NCBI RefSeq assembly: GCF_044324875.1
Contig: NZ_CP172185.1
Origin: Escherichia coli
GTDB taxonomy: Bacteria; Pseudomonadota; Gammaproteobacteria; Enterobacterales; Enterobacteriaceae
Reading direction: 5' to 3' (one strand)
Length of the DNA: 64,000 bases
In this document: positions 35,653 through 42,287 of the stretch, piece after piece
How positions within the stretch are numbered: position 1 is the stretch's first letter
Layout: every line of letters begins with the position of its first letter
Program-made: the position numbers and the translations under genes
Notes under the pieces: generated by a model
The model's database searches: none
What the model saw: the letters and a program-made list of their open reading frames with translations, nothing else
Told to the model about the DNA's origin: nothing

Positions 35653-35943
35653 TTACGTACGCAGTCGTTCCGGCTTCTTCCAGTGGTACGTATTTTTCGC
35701 GCTCTCCCTCCGTTGTTGAGAACGGCGACGGTATGCCAGCAACTCAAGGACTCTTGTTCGTATGTTGCGCATATCCACGCCGTTAAGCTCAATACCATCA
35801 CGGCGCATCACCTCCGCAACAACACGCACATAATTTTCGGCGGTCACGCTGTCCGGCTGCGTGGCCTGTTCGTCATGCTGCTGGCTGATTCCGGTAACGC
35901 GGCGGATTAATCCCAGTAGTTCGGCTTCGCTCATTCTCGTCAT
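35653..35943 (-). CDS. Hypothetical protein (96 aa), start overlaps terL stop (ATGA)
   Basis: ORF start overlaps the terL stop; no recognisable motif. Confidence 0.4.
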   Translation of the reverse strand: MTRMSEAELLGLIRRVTGISQQHDEQATQPDSVTAENYVRVVAEVMRRDGIELNGVDMRNIRTRVLELLAYRRRSQQRRESAKNTYHWKKPERLRT

Positions 35944-37601
35944 ACCCCATCAAACGCCGCAAGCCGCTCTTTGTGGCTGTCGCTCATATCGAATGCAAAT
36001 TCCTCATGCTCTGCCTGGAATGTGCCAAACGCCATCAGCGCCGCAACGCTCGGGTCTATCTTGTTGGATGATTTTTTCTTGTTCGGCTTGATATTGGCGT
36101 TCGCGTCACTCTGCATCACAACATTACTCATTGACCAGGCCAGCACCGGATCACCACGATGCACAATCACCTTCCGGTTAACAAAAACTTCGAACGATTT
36201 CGCCGCCGGACTGAAACGAAGGTATGTTTGCGGGAACGGCTCCACCTCAAATCCCGCCCCCTGTAGCTGTGTTCTCAGGTGAGTGGCGTTCCATGTATCG
36301 AAGCCCACCAGCCTGATACTGAAATTCTCTGCATCCGCCATGATGTCATCACGGATACGGTCATAATCAATGCAGTCACCCGGTGTTGTGCGTATCCAGC
36401 CAGCCTTTACCCACTGGCGATAGATGGCGCGGTTTTTATTGGCGGGGTTCTGTAGCTGAAATTCCGGCAGATAGTGACGGGAAACCAGCATAATTTTTTT
36501 ACCGACCGGGAAGGCATAGCACACGCTGGAAATATCGCTGGTTGATGATAAGTCCAGCCCCGCGTAGCACTCCTGCCCGTATAAATCCGCCTCCGCGAAC
36601 GTTCCGGCGCACTCCGCCCATGCACCGTTACCCATCCACGGCGTAGCCCCCTGACACCAGATATTGAATCGCTTGGTGAGCATTTCCACCCACTGCGACG
36701 GAATACCCCGCGCTTTCTGGATGGTTGAGGCCAGTTTTTCACGATCGACGGAAACATCGATATTGGGATTCGCCTTTATCCACATCGCCGGATCGTCAAC
36801 CTCGCTTTCATCATCCAGCTCGTAAATCAGCACGAACATGGATTCGTTCACCTCTTCACCATCCAGTATCTGGCAGCAATAGTCATAGTGTTGTTTACAG
36901 GCTGAAACAACGTTGCTCCCCGATGTGGTGATGGCAAATAACAGCCCCTCCGGACGCGCCCCCATTCCCAGCTCAAGCGCGGAATAAACCCCGTTGTCAG
37001 GGTGCAGGTGATATTCATCCACAATGGCAAGACTCGGGTTTGTACCTTCAATGGTTGCCGCTTTTGCTGCCAGTGGCTTTAACAGGCTGTTGGTTTTCGC
37101 GTGTATCACCTTGTGTGCCTGAATATTTACCCGCTTTCGTAACGGTCGGGATAAAAGGCACATCTGACGCGCATCATCAAACACGATCCGCGCCTGATCA
37201 CGACTCACGGCGGCGGTGTAAATATCCTGCTGCCCGTTTTCCATAACCAGAAACCAGTTAGCCAGGATAGCGGCGACCGTGGATTTGGCATTTTTTCGCG
37301 GTACTTCAATGAATGCGCTGGTGTATTTGCGCCGTCCGGTGGCCTTAACCTTAAAGCCCAGGATGCACGCAAAGGCGAACTGCTGCCACGGCTCCAGCTC
37401 AATGGGGCTACCGCGCATTGCGCCTTTTACGTGCGGACACACCCTGGAAAAGGCAATAAACCGCTCCACGACCTCCGGATCGAACGTGTAAAGGGGGTTT
37501 TCAAGGTCAGAAAAATACCGTTTAACAGCCTGTTTCAGTCGTTTACAGGCCGTAATTTTGCCGTTTTTTACGCCTTCTGCGTACTCATGCCAGGCGGTCA
37601 A
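35940..37601 (-). CDS. terL: Terminase large subunit, 553 aa
   Basis: ATPase P-loop-like VPRKNAKST and Walker B-like LAIVDEYH, C-terminal nuclease-like region; overlaps terS 3' end. Confidence 0.85.
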   Translation of the reverse strand: MTAWHEYAEGVKNGKITACKRLKQAVKRYFSDLENPLYTFDPEVVERFIAFSRVCPHVKGAMRGSPIELEPWQQFAFACILGFKVKATGRRKYTSAFIEVPRKNAKSTVAAILANWFLVMENGQQDIYTAAVSRDQARIVFDDARQMCLLSRPLRKRVNIQAHKVIHAKTNSLLKPLAAKAATIEGTNPSLAIVDEYHLHPDNGVYSALELGMGARPEGLLFAITTSGSNVVSACKQHYDYCCQILDGEEVNESMFVLIYELDDESEVDDPAMWIKANPNIDVSVDREKLASTIQKARGIPSQWVEMLTKRFNIWCQGATPWMGNGAWAECAGTFAEADLYGQECYAGLDLSSTSDISSVCYAFPVGKKIMLVSRHYLPEFQLQNPANKNRAIYRQWVKAGWIRTTPGDCIDYDRIRDDIMADAENFSIRLVGFDTWNATHLRTQLQGAGFEVEPFPQTYLRFSPAAKSFEVFVNRKVIVHRGDPVLAWSMSNVVMQSDANANIKPNKKKSSNKIDPSVAALMAFGTFQAEHEEFAFDMSDSHKERLAAFDGV

Positions 37602-37941
37602 GCTCGTCCTCTTCCTCTGTTTCCGGTGGATTTCTGCGGCGGCTTACCGGGTCAAAACCCAGCAAAGAAGCCATTTTGATCATTATTCTTTCCGCGTCAG
37701 CCTTTGCGCTCAGGGCGGGGTTTCTGCTCTCGCTGCCCTGACTGTTAACAATGCTGAACCCGCGCGTGGCAAGGTCTTCGACGGCTTTGCGGTATATGGA
37801 GTAGTTAACGCAATACAGCTCCAGATTGCTCCAGTCGGCGGGAGTAAGGTCTTCCCGTCCGGAAAGCTGGCGCGATTTTTCCTTCCACTGCCTGACCGCG
37901 ATTTCATCCAGGTAAGCGGGGGCTTTTGGTGGTCTTGCCAT
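37585..37941 (-). CDS. terS: Terminase small subunit (P27-type), ~118 aa
   Basis: Translation MARPPKAPAYLDEIAVRQWKEKSRQL...; overlaps terL start by 17 nt. Confidence 0.7.
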   Translation of the reverse strand: MARPPKAPAYLDEIAVRQWKEKSRQLSGREDLTPADWSNLELYCVNYSIYRKAVEDLATRGFSIVNSQGSESRNPALSAKADAERIMIKMASLLGFDPVSRRRNPPETEEEDELDRLA

Positions 37942-38004
37942 GTTCTTTTTTCGCCCAATTATTTTCAAAAAAATTCCCGTGCACAAAAATTTGAGCAGGC
38001 GGTC

Positions 38005-38060
38005 GGTTCTGGGCGGGGTCGGGTTCGTCCTGAAAACTCCCCCCCACCCCGTCCGGCTGC
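38005..38060. other. Candidate cos/packaging-initiation region (GC-rich, lambda-cosN-like)
   Basis: gggcggggtcgggttcgtcc and ctcccccccaccccgtccggc between the HNH module and terS; resembles the lambda cohesive end GGGCGGCGACCT. Confidence 0.35.
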
Positions 38061-40516: not shown

Positions 40517-40517
40517 A

Positions 40518-41090
40518 TCACACCCCCGCTAAATCCACCCACCAGCGGCGATTATCCGCACGCGGCATTTTTTCGGGGTGCTGCTCATACAGGGAACGGC
40601 GGGCCAGCTCCACGCCAGAATCGGGGTAAGCCGGTACCGATGTAACGGTAATTTCGTACAGTTCCGCCACCAGCACGGTACGAACGCATGGATCTGTTGT
40701 GGTATCCCATACATCCTTACGGGAGCGAAAGCCAAAGCTCATGCCGGATATATCACCGCGTTTAACCAGTTCGATAACGTCGCGCCCTGTACTGGTATCC
40801 GGTGGGGTCAGTTCAAAGCGTAACCCTGTTTCGTCCTCTTCCAGTTTCAGCGTGCCGGAACGGGTGCGCCCCAGTAACATGCTGTGGTCATGCTCATACA
40901 GGCCGCGAACGTCATTACCCGCCGCAAGCCATTCAGTAAACGCCCCCCGCTGGAATTTTTCGTAAAACTCACCCCATAACAGTTCTGAAAGCTTATCCCA
41001 GCGAACAACGTAGCCCGTCAGCGTACCGGCTCCGCTCGTGGTGATTTCCGATGACCGGATTTCCATACTCTTCATAATTTTTTCACCCAT
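40518..41090 (-). CDS. Prohead protease (HK97 family), 190 aa
   Basis: Translation resembles HK97-type prohead protease; lies between capsid and portal. Confidence 0.75.
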   Translation of the reverse strand: MGEKIMKSMEIRSSEITTSGAGTLTGYVVRWDKLSELLWGEFYEKFQRGAFTEWLAAGNDVRGLYEHDHSMLLGRTRSGTLKLEEDETGLRFELTPPDTSTGRDVIELVKRGDISGMSFGFRSRKDVWDTTTDPCVRTVLVAELYEITVTSVPAYPDSGVELARRSLYEQHPEKMPRADNRRWWVDLAGV

Positions 41091-41129
41091 AAAACACTAA
41101 AGGGGCTTTTAAGCCCCTTCTGTATGCTG

Positions 41130-42287
41130 TTAATCGTCGTCCTGTGGCAGTTCCAGAATCTTGATCGCGTTCGAATCCACCACGCCACCGCCTAAATATT
41201 TCTGCGTGAAAATTTTGATGAAGCCCGGCTCTGTGATGTTGTCCGGTCTGGTGCGAACACCTGTTTCGTGATCAACAATGTAGTAACCGCGTTTGAAGTC
41301 ACCCAGGGCAATAACGTTATCAGGCATAAACTCCAGATATTCGACCGGAAGGCCCAGCAACGTATCAGGATCACCCGCCTGTAAACGGTCGCGCCAGATG
41401 TAATCACCGTTCGCGTTCTTCACCTTCTGAAGTTTTGCCGCCGTTGTGGAGTTAACCACCCATACCGCGTTCTTGCGGTATTTTTTACGCAATGCAAATT
41501 TCAGGTCGATCAGCGGGTCCGCAGATGTCCACGCCAGACCGTGAGTGGGCTTGATAACCTGCAACGTTCCGAAGTCGCGTTCTTTGTCGCTCTTCTCTGC
41601 ACGGGGGACGGATAAAAAGCCTTTTGCTTTTTTGTCACCGTCTCCCACAACCAGATCGCTTTCTTCGGTTTCCGTGAAGGTGTCGCCAATCTCGGCCGTC
41701 AGCCATGAAAGGATGTCCACATCGGAAAAATCCACGATTTCCTGTGTGGTGCGCGGGTACGCATAGACCGGATACAGCTTAATGCTCACCTCGTTAATCT
41801 GCGGGGTGCTGGTCTGTTCGCGTGCCTTACCCTCTTCACCGTGGTTAACGGTCGCACCGCCAGCGGAAACAAGCTGCTTAAACTCGTTGCTGCTGATTTT
41901 CTTCACGGTACAGATGCGGCGCATGGTGGATTCATCCGCCAGCATTCGCATGATTTCGGTGTTCAGTTCGGGGATAACGGTATAACCACCATCAGCGGGA
42001 ACGCCTGTACTTAATGCGCGGGTTTCACCTGTCAGAATGTAGTTGCGTAGTTCTGCGGGGTCAGTGGTCTGACTGCTTTTACCTGGCTTGCTGCGCTCTT
42101 CGTCTGCAATGGCTTCAAGGCGGGAAATGTCTTTATCGAGGGATTCAGCTTTAGCGCGTAATTCATCAAATTTTGCGCCCTCAGCATCGTTAAGACTGCG
42201 GTTTTCTTTTTCCGCGTTCTCCAGCATGTCGCGCATCTGATTTTTAATGGCGGTTTTCTGCTGGCGTAATTCGATTATTCTCGGCAT
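41130..42287 (-). CDS. Major capsid protein (HK97 fold) with N-terminal coiled-coil scaffold domain, 385 aa
   Basis: Charged coiled-coil N-terminus (LRQQKTAIKNQMRDMLENAEKENRSL...) then capsid-like body; ATG at 42287 preferred over the upstream TTG. Confidence 0.8.
   Translation of the reverse strand: MPRIIELRQQKTAIKNQMRDMLENAEKENRSLNDAEGAKFDELRAKAESLDKDISRLEAIADEERSKPGKSSQTTDPAELRNYILTGETRALSTGVPADGGYTVIPELNTEIMRMLADESTMRRICTVKKISSNEFKQLVSAGGATVNHGEEGKAREQTSTPQINEVSIKLYPVYAYPRTTQEIVDFSDVDILSWLTAEIGDTFTETEESDLVVGDGDKKAKGFLSVPRAEKSDKERDFGTLQVIKPTHGLAWTSADPLIDLKFALRKKYRKNAVWVVNSTTAAKLQKVKNANGDYIWRDRLQAGDPDTLLGLPVEYLEFMPDNVIALGDFKRGYYIVDHETGVRTRPDNITEPGFIKIFTQKYLGGGVVDSNAIKILELPQDDD

Follow-up and report, generated by a model that had tools for sequence, protein, structure and literature searches.

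[quoted passage not shown] (10.1101/2022.09.08.507074), whose mutagenesis showed that the genes of the prototype EcCIEDL933 build small capsids requiring only helper tails. He et al. (10.1101/2025.02.11.637232) give the same cf-PICI criteria and gene order together with the structure of the T=4 capsid. [quoted passage not shown] Classical proteobacterial PICIs of the EcCICFT073 type and P4-like satellites have an int-alpA-rep backbone with one direction of transcription, as does the island described here, but they build no capsids of their own and lack the portal, connectors and TerL that the island has; in SatelliteFinder, portal and connectors are forbidden components for a PICI. Here we analyse a 64,000-nucleotide stretch of Escherichia coli DNA (the window; NZ_CP172185.1), for which an original prediction had described packaging and head genes in a non-canonical order.

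Results

Pfam and PHROG matches confirm the predicted order at 35940-42287: capsid, S78 protease, portal, Hc1, Ad1, HNH, 60-aa ORF, TerS and TerL, all nine on the minus strand (Table 1). Given the very low E-values, this order is not an effect of chance or of ORF calling. The limits of the module correspond exactly to the terL stop and the capsid start, whose ATG at 42287 agrees with 385-aa RefSeq models; the TerS start likewise agrees with a RefSeq 118-aa model, and the 60-aa ORF is conserved and annotated in RefSeq relatives. All nine ORFs are intact, and most abut their neighbours or overlap them by 1-17 nt, the two exceptions being capsid and protease, 39 nt apart, and the small ORF and terS, separated by 123 nt. 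From this overlapping or abutting arrangement, we infer that the packaging genes form one leftward operon. Its last gene, the 96-aa ORF, gave no PADLOC match.

Table 1. Features of the island in window coordinates.
Feature	Position	Strand	Evidence or remark
Left junction core TGCTGTTAT	35232-35240	.	closes tqsA 5' fragment (ORF 35104-35268); island from ~35241
96-aa ORF 3' of terL	35653-35943	-	phrog_1561 3.2e-56; last operon gene
TerL, large terminase	35940-37601	-	PF03354 (TerL_ATPase) + PF20441 (TerL_nuclease); phrog_9 3.5e-180
TerS, small terminase (P27/Terminase_4 family)	37585-37941	-	PF05119 2.3e-23; phrog_83
Candidate cos region	37942-38064	-	between 60-aa ORF and terS; G-rich core + AT-rich block
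60-aa ORF (the predicted 'small ORF')	38065-38247	-	phrog_3173 1.9e-34; between HNH and cos/terS
HNH endonuclease, terminase accessory of HK97-type cos packaging	38231-38671	-	PF01844 9.4e-8; phrog_144 4.2e-43
Ad1, head-tail adaptor (gp6-like connector)	38671-38967	-	PF05135 7.8e-12; phrog_40 1.5e-33
Hc1, head closure/head-tail joining (gp7-like)	38964-39302	-	PF05521 1e-18; phrog_25 1.5e-29
Portal protein	39299-40516	-	PF04860 1.6e-91; phrog_12
Prohead serine protease (S78, HK97 type)	40518-41090	-	PF04586 Peptidase_S78 7e-48; phrog_80
Terminator-/attenuator-like GC-rich hairpin, then T-rich tail	41099-41120	-	terminator scan; directly 3' of capsid stop
Major capsid protein (HK97 fold)	41130-42287	-	PF05065 1.4e-61; phrog_10 8.8e-88; first packaging-operon gene
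Divergent intergenic region, expected packaging-operon promoter	42288-42602	.	promoter position inferred
157-aa accessory ORF	42603-43076	+	opposite strand; variable slot before packaging operon
PerC-family regulator	43406-43807	-	PF06069 6.1e-37
SSB	43698-44108	-	PF00436 3.7e-16
Three iteron-like repeats TTTTGCTCCCCACTTTTT	44689-44874	.	repeat search; spacing 83-85 bp, just downstream of rep
Replication protein, RepA-like AAA_25 helicase	44873-46279	-	PF13481 1.1e-42; phrog_2850, phrog_906
C4 antisense RNA	47472-47559	-	Rfam RF01695, 72.3 bits vs gathering score 45
AlpA regulator/excisionase	48845-49033	-	PF05930 5e-18
Tyrosine integrase	49408-50637	-	PF13356 + PF00589
Right junction core TGCTGTTAT	50813-50821	.	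same 9-mer; tqsA reading frame resumes

These genes lie within a 15.6-kb island (~35241-50821) that interrupts tqsA in an E. coli-like chromosome, and its left junction is common to about 234 E. coli genomes. The iteron-like repeats are a candidate replication origin. An Icd-like ORF (47247-47447; named after the RefSeq annotation of a homologous ORF) lies directly downstream of the C4 antisense RNA, and the pair resembles P4/P1 immunity. Immune systems are expected in the slot before the packaging operon (He et al.); the 157-aa ORF found there had no Pfam, PHROG or PADLOC match. Searches of the island ORFs scanned within the 15.6 kb against Pfam and PHROG gave no match to tail or lysis families. 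The island shows every cf-PICI feature that can be read from sequence, and we are highly confident in reading the segment as the packaging operon of an EcCIEDL933-type cf-PICI of 15.6 kb integrated in tqsA. Several small ORFs without assigned function might instead suggest a complete miniature phage, with tail genes elsewhere in the genome or too divergent for recognition. These ORFs, however, are 60-157 aa long and total <3 kb, too little for tape measure, tube, baseplate and fibres; the island is without a lysis gene, and transfer of EcCIEDL933 is, as published, lost upon mutation of a helper tape-measure or major tail gene. We put the probability of a miniature phage close to nil.

Gene order in EcCIEDL933 (O157:H7 EDL933; NZ_CP008957.1, 1680329-1694760) is identical to that of the cf-PICI in the window all the way from int through the ORF that follows terL; the published size of EcCIEDL933 is 15.4 kb, and tail and lysis genes are absent from both. 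Its proteins are 98% (capsid), 97% (protease), 95% (portal), 93% (TerL), 88% (HNH and TerS), 93% (60-aa ORF), 78% (ORF after terL), 91% (int), 95% (alpA) and 98% (SSB) identical to those in the window. The two differ in insertion site (tqsA here, roxA-phoQ in EDL933), in replication protein (AAA_25 RepA-like here, a DUF927 protein in EcCIEDL933) and in the 157-aa opposite-strand ORF, which was not detected in EDL933. The connectors have also diverged, Ad1 being only 68% and Hc1 only 54% identical, and it is the Ad1 and Hc1 genes that determine tail compatibility (He et al.). Judging from this divergence and the different Rep family, helper and tail specificity may differ from EcCIEDL933.

The closest complete-genome relative is an island in E. 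coli LH50-c (NZ_CP100500.1), which aligns to 93% of the window's island at 96.6% nucleotide identity; this was the best match in the collection of complete E. coli genomes searched, none of which has the exact island. It lies at roxA-phoQ, not tqsA, and shares the gene order. Identity is 100% for protease, portal, Hc1, Ad1 and the 157-aa ORF, 99.75% for capsid and 99% for rep, and lower for int (90%), HNH (88%) and the small ORF (70%), the last two pointing to recombination patches even within the module.

In all five tailed phages or prophages checked (VW-6S, SfIV, BiPBO1 and prophages in loci L014 and L099; three from the best true-phage capsid or TerL matches, two reached via distant capsid relatives), the order is (HNH)-TerS-TerL-portal-protease-capsid-Ad1-Hc1-tail, and the synteny check thus bears out the predicted departure from HK97-like phages. 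These phages and the island have in common the HK97-fold capsid, portal, P27/Terminase_4 TerS and TerL families. An S78 protease is present in four of the five, BiPBO1 having a Clp protease; tblastn with the island protease as query detected none of the comparator proteases. HNH was found in the two prophage loci, where the HNH-(cos)-TerS-TerL block is ordered as in the island. In all five, the head genes come directly after TerL and are followed by tail genes. The comparator proteins are 28-37% identical to the island's, and the three GenBank tailed-phage genomes are ~38-47 kb. The head genes were predicted to have been relocated; they have moved, but not only that, since their internal order is reversed, portal-protease-capsid becoming capsid-protease-portal and Ad1-Hc1 becoming Hc1-Ad1 with the strand unchanged.

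Canonical order occurs in none of 80 IMG/VR loci with related capsids (56-98% identical): 42 have the full cf-PICI order, 29 have it except that Hc1 was not detected, and the remainder are truncated loci. The int-to-TerL span of related loci has a median of 14.2 kb, and three satellite lineages with capsids just 36-39% identical are likewise capsid-first. Two GenBank 'phage' records, vB_KppS-Ant (LR881103.1) and Pasteurella Pmp8 (OR544139.1), are actually cf-PICIs of 15-16.5 kb that have an integrase or integrase remnant and the eight named packaging genes ordered as in the window, with Hc1 of Pmp8 falling below the search threshold. Protein identities to the window are 40-85% and 42-69%, respectively; the backbones of both differ from the window, and vB_KppS-Ant has extra cargo after terL, a gene annotated as tape measure. 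The original prediction was to fail if this order proved standard in the closest phage relatives: the nearest GenBank 'phage' records do have it, but they are satellites labelled as phages, and true tailed phages do not.

Between the 60-aa ORF and terS lies the sole sizeable non-coding gap of the packaging module, with a G-rich core ACGGGGTGGGGGGGAGTTTTCAGGAC from 38052 to 38027 and an AT-rich block from 37995 to 37958 (both minus strand). This candidate is kept in LH50-c, EcCIEDL933 and Pmp8, in the last alongside proteins just 53-69% identical. The linear vB_KppS-Ant record opens at terS and closes with HNH, the arrangement that cleavage at the proposed cos would give. It stops directly behind ...TTTTCAGGAC and starts again 22 nt ahead of terS, but its junction is without ~85 bp found in the window, so that its ends cannot be taken as the exact termini. 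The gap probably contains the island's own cos site, and its position and conservation, together with the vB_KppS-Ant ends, suggest a packaged genome reading TerS-TerL-att-int-alpA-rep-...-capsid...HNH. This agrees with the predicted layout relative to cos, in which the head genes lie at the far end and integration, regulation and replication genes between.

A phylogeny of TerL versus capsid had been proposed as a test of separate origins. In neighbour-joining (NJ) trees, small, with few taxa and not decisive by themselves, the capsid-first satellite L012 groups with the window clade for both capsid and TerL, separately from the phages and with 100% bootstrap support. L012 is also the best TerL match outside the window clade (40%, 426 bits, against 330 bits for BiPBO1) and the second-best capsid match, behind L010, which has no TerL. 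Head and terminase genes might instead have been acquired separately from different phages, giving a chimeric module and a stronger form of modular assembly. In favour of this, the best true-phage matches differ by gene (capsid: VW-6S, D3-like phages, SfIV and ST64B; TerL: BiPBO1, IPK, AS1 and Vibrio K256), and identities inside the clade are uneven (to vB_KppS-Ant, capsid 64%, TerL 83%). But phage-match ranking at 30-37% identity is noise, and published capsid and TerL phylogenies yield the same clades (Alqurainy et al.). With these data and the congruence of both trees via L012, separate acquisition is very unlikely, and sequence comparison indicates that the packaging module has a single shared history.

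Phage head genes without tail genes could also be what is left of an HK97-like prophage that lost tail and lysis genes, was scrambled by rearrangements and has no mobility of its own, and a homologous capsid (P0102) bears the database name 'capsid protein of prophage CP-933C'. We take CP-933C to be an older cryptic-prophage label for the EcCIEDL933 element in EDL933. Against decay stand the nine intact, overlapping or abutting ORFs, the recurrence of layout and ~14-16 kb size in related contigs (80/80) across genera, and the conservation of the non-coding cos candidate from E. coli to Pasteurella elements. Moreover, the like-ordered vB_KppS-Ant was deposited as an induced-particle genome, and the prototype, 93-98% identical, was shown to be mobilised (Alqurainy et al.). 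We consider a decaying prophage extremely unlikely.

Discussion

The gene order is the published standard layout of proteobacterial cf-PICIs, already known and not new; since the island is also close kin of the tested prototype, the finding is an ordinary one. The order is a fixed layout of this lineage, neither a local rearrangement nor a sign of decay. The original preference for modular assembly over prophage decay is the published view (Alqurainy et al.), and the mosaicism seen here fits it, with packaging proteins 93-98% identical to the prototype's beside a different Rep family.

Extrapolating induction, capsid size and tail dependence from EcCIEDL933, we propose the following working of the island. 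A helper prophage would induce it, Int and AlpA would excise it, and Rep would replicate it from the iteron origin. The leftward operon would then supply capsid, protease and portal proteins encoded by the island itself, which would assemble into small T=4 procapsids. At the island's own cos, in the gap separating the 60-aa ORF from terS, island concatemers would be cleaved and packaged by TerS, TerL and HNH, and Ad1 and Hc1 would close the head and dock a helper-phage tail.

Expression within the operon may be graded as well. The divergent intergenic region upstream of the capsid gene had no sigma-70 consensus in our scan of its minus strand; the minus-strand genes upstream of this region end at a two-way terminator-like hairpin (43080-43105). 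The capsid-protease spacer folds at -17.3 kcal/mol (RNAfold), and nearly every distinct capsid-protease spacer among relatives has an equivalent hairpin, with sequence changes in both arms of the stem. We hypothesize that the capsid-first position and the conserved hairpin could keep the capsid gene more strongly expressed than any gene downstream of it. Similar GC-rich hairpins follow the capsid gene in canonical phages.

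The packaging operon and its published counterparts

From Pfam and PHROG scans of the window ORFs, we assigned the genes of the packaging operon (minus strand, 35940-42287) in the 15.6-kb island inserted in tqsA (about 35241-50821). In transcription order it reads capsid, protease, portal, Hc1 (head closure), Ad1 (adaptor), HNH, a 60-aa ORF, TerS and TerL, and the gene list, order and coordinates of the original prediction were correct. Neighbouring genes abut or overlap, except for a 39-nt spacer between capsid and protease and a 123-nt gap ahead of terS. [quoted passage not shown] Alqurainy et al. 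(10.1101/2022.09.08.507074) give the capsid-first order through hnh-terS-terL as the proteobacterial cf-PICI organisation and remark that the packaging modules of phages and of PICIs "have different genetic organisations"; the identical gene list and order serve as identification criteria in He et al. (10.1101/2025.02.11.637232), and de Sousa et al. describe the cfPICI core organisation as very conserved. The residual novelty is a hairpin after the capsid gene, together with deep capsid-first satellite lineages, and the main use of the result is as annotation, flagging in tqsA a satellite of 15.6 kb that is probably mobile.

Taking the criteria of He et al. 2025 (10.1101/2025.02.11.637232), Alqurainy et al. 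2022 (10.1101/2022.09.08.507074) and the SatelliteFinder cfPICI model, every sequence-testable property of a cf-PICI is present in the island. Its 15.6 kb between the 9-bp cores that split tqsA lies within the size range of about 10-18 kb; an integrase stands at one end; the regulation module (AlpA, MerR or Stl type) is represented by AlpA, and the primase-replicase module by an AAA_25 RepA-like protein with iterons. [quoted passage not shown] These same features do not fit an HK97-like temperate phage or an intact prophage, since the three GenBank phages used for comparison measure about 38-47 kb, and the head order TerS-TerL-portal-protease-capsid-Ad1-Hc1 is not that of the island. A prophage remnant was likewise rejected as a reading. 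A classical PICI of the EcCICFT073/SaPI type, which relies on the capsid proteins of its helper, is at odds with the presence of portal, Ad1, Hc1 and TerL; portal, connectors and TerL are forbidden components in the SatelliteFinder PICI model. A P4-like element would be marked by the capsid-size and transactivation genes Psu, Sid and Delta, an alpha primase and a P2-type cos. The island contains a C4 antisense RNA and an Icd-like ORF, and the general Pfam/PHROG matches assigned none of its ORFs as psu, sid or delta. For a cf-PICI, we would expect small capsids of its own, packaging of itself only and dependence on helper tails, because its capsid, protease, portal and TerL are 93-98% identical to those of EcCIEDL933, the prototype from E. 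coli O157:H7 EDL933, where these properties have been shown. By the same analogy, the island would be induced by a helper phage.

Coordinates of features in and around the island
Feature	Position	Strand	Basis or remark
TnpA-like ORF	31544-32053	-	about 3 kb outside the island
tqsA 5' end (ORF)	35104-35268		interrupted at the 9-bp core
9-bp core TGCTGTTAT	35232-35240; 50813-50821		identical copies
Paired ACTACACC repeats (AAATTAACTACACCATTAACTACACCG, AAAGTGACTACACCAGTGACTACACCG)	35311-35341; 50659-50689		same orientation; candidate arm-binding sites
96-aa ORF after TerL	35653-35943		phrog_1561
TerL	35940-37601	-	Pfam/PHROG
TerS, P27-type	37585-37941	-	Pfam/PHROG
Candidate cos region	37942-38064		123-nt gap
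G-rich core ACGGGGTGGGGGGGAGTTTTCAGGAC	38052->38027		within the gap
Conserved 60-aa ORF	38065-38247	-	phrog_3173
HNH endonuclease	38231-38671	-	Pfam/PHROG
Ad1, gp6-like adaptor	38671-38967	-	PF05135
Hc1, head closure / "head-tail joining" protein	38964-39302	-	PF05521
Portal	39299-40516	-	Pfam/PHROG
S78 prohead protease	40518-41090	-	Pfam/PHROG
GC-rich hairpin with T-rich tail	41120-41099	-	directly after capsid stop codon
Major capsid protein	41130-42287	-	PF05065, 1.4e-61
157-aa accessory ORF	42603-43076	+	ends at two-way terminator-like hairpin, 43080-43105
Three iteron-like repeats, TTTTGCTCCCCACTTTTT	44689-44874		spaced 83-85 bp, just downstream of rep
Replication protein, AAA_25 RepA-like	44873-46279		matches helicase-primase PHROGs
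Icd-like ORF	47247-47447	-	
C4 antisense RNA	47472-47559	-	Rfam RF01695, 72 bits; just upstream of Icd-like ORF
Second similar small ORF	47707-47910	-	phrog_1743
AlpA	48845-49033		PF05930, 5e-18
Tyrosine integrase	49408-50637		adjoins right junction
tqsA 3' part	50813-51719		annotated tqsA in RefSeq relatives

Limits, backbone and cargo of the island

Comparison of both tqsA junctions identified the 9-bp core: the tqsA 5' end is interrupted at the first copy, and the frame resumes after the second. For att sites, a direct-repeat search (seed 11, minimum length 14) gave no pair spanning the island, and no tRNA gene lies at the tqsA insertion site. An integrase-bearing island occupies this site in about 234-246 of 5,426 complete E. 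coli genomes. The AI-2 transporter gene tqsA is split near codon 46, its 5' fragment acquiring a short foreign tail and its 3' part still being annotated from an internal start. The paired ACTACACC repeats just within the island ends are candidate arm-binding sites for the integrase.

Within the backbone, the TTTTGCTCCCCACTTTTT repeats are likely an iteron origin of replication, and the remaining genes include an SSB, a PerC-family regulator and a DUF4222 protein; several small ORFs have no assigned function. The C4 antisense RNA and the Icd-like ORF appear to be P1/P4-type immunity hardware within a cf-PICI. A second small ORF similar to the Icd-like one lies about 460 bp from it. In the variable slot ahead of the packaging operon, the expected place for immune systems in cf-PICIs, lies a 157-aa ORF with no Pfam, PHROG or PADLOC match; among the accessory ORFs PADLOC found no defence proteins, its sole match being a weak ZorE (E = 0.004), which we dismissed. 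Outside the island, the N-terminus of the ORF at 31544-32053 resembles, by eye, an IS200/IS605-type transposase.

Gene order compared with tailed phages

We compared the operon with VW-6S and SfIV (capsid matches) and BiPBO1 (TerL match), which are among the best true-phage matches in GenBank; all three read TerS-TerL-portal-protease-capsid-Ad1-Hc1-tail. Two prophages reached via distant capsid relatives (L014, L099) have HNH-TerS-TerL-portal-protease-capsid-connector-tail. The only GenBank "phage" records more than 55% identical are vB_KppS-Ant (LR881103.1) and Pmp8 (OR544139.1), which span 15-16.5 kb and have the cf-PICI order. The original prediction of a non-canonical arrangement was to fall if this order proved standard in the closest phage relatives; the closest records do share it, but at 15-16.5 kb they are small elements, and the five tailed relatives are canonical. 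Canonical order occurred in none of 80 IMG/VR loci (capsids 56-98% identical), obtained by an alignment-seeded viral-contig scan that retained in-clade loci only: the full cf-PICI order was found in 42, another 29 had it except that Hc1 was too divergent to detect, eight were truncated and one was circularly permuted. Where a related integrase was detectable, the int-to-TerL span had a median of 14.2 kb.

The stretch HNH-(cos)-TerS-TerL of the island keeps the canonical order, and the phage series portal-protease-capsid-Ad1-Hc1 has become capsid-protease-portal-Hc1-Ad1. A simple inversion of the head block is excluded, since it would flip strands, yet all genes are co-oriented. The change requires at least two block exchanges, and the int-rep backbone also had to come to lie between terL and the capsid gene. 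The predicted relocation of the head genes to the far end, relative to the candidate cos site, is supported, but the change exceeds a relocation, the internal order of the head block being altered as well. In the EDL933 genome, a lambdoid tailed prophage (L004 29209-37565; NZ_CP008957.1 about 1649209-1657565) reads HNH-TerS-TerL-capsid (645 aa)-small ORF-portal-Ad1-Hc1. Placement of the capsid gene ahead of the portal gene is therefore also found in a genuine phage lineage, one that is remote from the island (26% identity in portal, 24% in TerL).

Candidate cos site

The 123-nt gap between the 60-aa ORF and terS is strongly conserved, with a G-rich core and an AT-rich block that can be recognised even in a Pasteurella element with protein identities of only 53-69%. 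The linear record of vB_KppS-Ant ends directly after ...TTTTCAGGAC and restarts 22 nt ahead of terS. We rejected these record ends as exact cos termini, about 85 bp found in the window being absent from the junction. The gap is a candidate cos region, and the conserved gap and the record ends support the predicted packaged genome, which would run TerS-TerL-att-int-...-rep-...-capsid...HNH.

Deep relatives and origin of the layout

No outgroups emerged from a word-indexed protein search, in which every capsid listed was in-clade and at least 68% identical, or from the viral-contig scan; they came from a 50%-representative search plus contig look-ups. Among 1.84 billion cluster representatives there was a sharp gap beyond the cf-PICI clade: the next capsids (tblastn) are only 36-39% identical, lying in small integrase- or primase-bearing elements with capsid first. 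One such satellite contig, L012, reads capsid-protease-portal-Ad1-Hc1-HNH-TerS-TerL, and another, L016, reads TerL-x-capsid-protease-portal-x-int. Two others from JGI metagenomes (L010 4919-14060 and L011 433-9574; identity to the island 39% for capsid and 47% for portal) read int...capsid-protease-portal-HNH-TerS without TerL or connectors, and may represent satellites that depend on a borrowed large terminase and borrowed connectors. Other satellites differ: L100 has just the capsid gene, and in L101 the protease precedes the capsid. P0133 is encoded on a 1.5-kb contig without context.

In small neighbour-joining trees (100 bootstraps), which with few taxa are only indicative, the capsid tree grouped the window clade with L012 and L010 at 100%, the TerL tree grouped the window clade with L012 at 100%, and the protease tree united all the capsid-first satellites at 100% as a group separate from the phages. 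Since the capsid and TerL groupings agree, they point to a shared history, and separate origins of the two genes, for which the original prediction had proposed a phylogeny of TerL versus capsid, are not supported. Published phylogenies also agree with a common history of capsid and TerL (Alqurainy et al., 10.1101/2022.09.08.507074). Modular assembly is real at another level, that of the backbone versus the packaging module and of the Ad1/Hc1 cassette. We raise only tentatively, as a rather doubtful idea, that the capsid-first layout is an ancient adaptive design and not a one-clade quirk, marking a deep group of capsid-encoding satellites that includes the stripped-down L010 and L011. If so, the rearranged module would trace to a single event in an ancestral satellite that long predates the enterobacterial cf-PICIs, and gene order could be used to find new satellite families.

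A conserved hairpin after the capsid gene

An equivalent of the GC-rich hairpin can be folded from almost every one of about 45 capsid-protease spacers that could be read in relatives (L002, L003, L010, L012 and L019-L098 are included), even in the distant L010, L012 and Pmp8. A strict test for a perfect stem plus T-run was passed by 20 of 28, against 0.17 expected in shuffles, a contrast that overstates the significance because the sequences are related. Better evidence comes from the compensatory stem variants, in which both sides have changed: GGGGC/GCCCC, GGAGGC/GCCTCC, GGGAT/ATCCC and GCGTTCCTG/CAGGAGCGC. In canonical tailed phages, too, the capsid gene is followed by such a hairpin, and therefore the hairpin travels with the gene.

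We suggest that the hairpin may be an attenuator that sets a capsid excess. The compact operon appears to have one promoter; with capsid first and a leaky terminator directly after it, capsid mRNA would exceed that of protease, portal, connectors and terminase. The T=4 shell holds 240 capsid subunits (He et al., 10.1101/2025.02.11.637232), a far larger number than the single portal, which takes the place of one penton. A scan for sigma-70 promoters yielded none on the minus strand ahead of the capsid gene, and site counts did not exceed shuffle expectation. The words terminator, hairpin, promoter and stoichiometry are absent from the cf-PICI preprints of Alqurainy et al. and He et al. The conserved hairpin and the capsid-first order in distant satellites make the reason for the kept order testable.

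Mosaic relationship to known elements

The island and the best-studied cf-PICI, EcCIEDL933, are close relatives with a mosaic pattern of similarity; we located EcCIEDL933 at NZ_CP008957.1 1680329-1694760, at roxA-phoQ in EDL933. Gene order is exactly the same, and protein identity to the window is 98% for capsid, 97% for protease, 95% for portal, 93% for TerL and the 60-aa ORF, and 88% for HNH and TerS, falling to 68% for Ad1 and 54% for Hc1; the two replication proteins are of different families. The Ad1/Hc1 cassette (window 38671-39302, EcCIEDL933 locus L006 20103-20734) has been exchanged. Because this divergent cassette is reported to determine tail specificity (He et al., 10.1101/2025.02.11.637232), the helper and tail range of the island probably differs from that of EcCIEDL933.

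The closest complete genome is LH50-c (NZ_CP100500.1), 96.6% identical over 93% of the island and with the same order. Protease, portal, Hc1 and Ad1 are 100% identical and capsid 99.75%, while HNH is 88% and the 60-aa ORF 70% identical (L001 4906-5512, window 38065-38671); this region is a second recombination patch, beside the candidate cos site. Directly behind terL, a place occupied in the window by nothing but the 96-aa ORF, vB_KppS-Ant has a gene of 2.3 kb (L002 2036-4333) whose annotation is "tail length tape measure protein"; it could be cargo or a mis-annotation.
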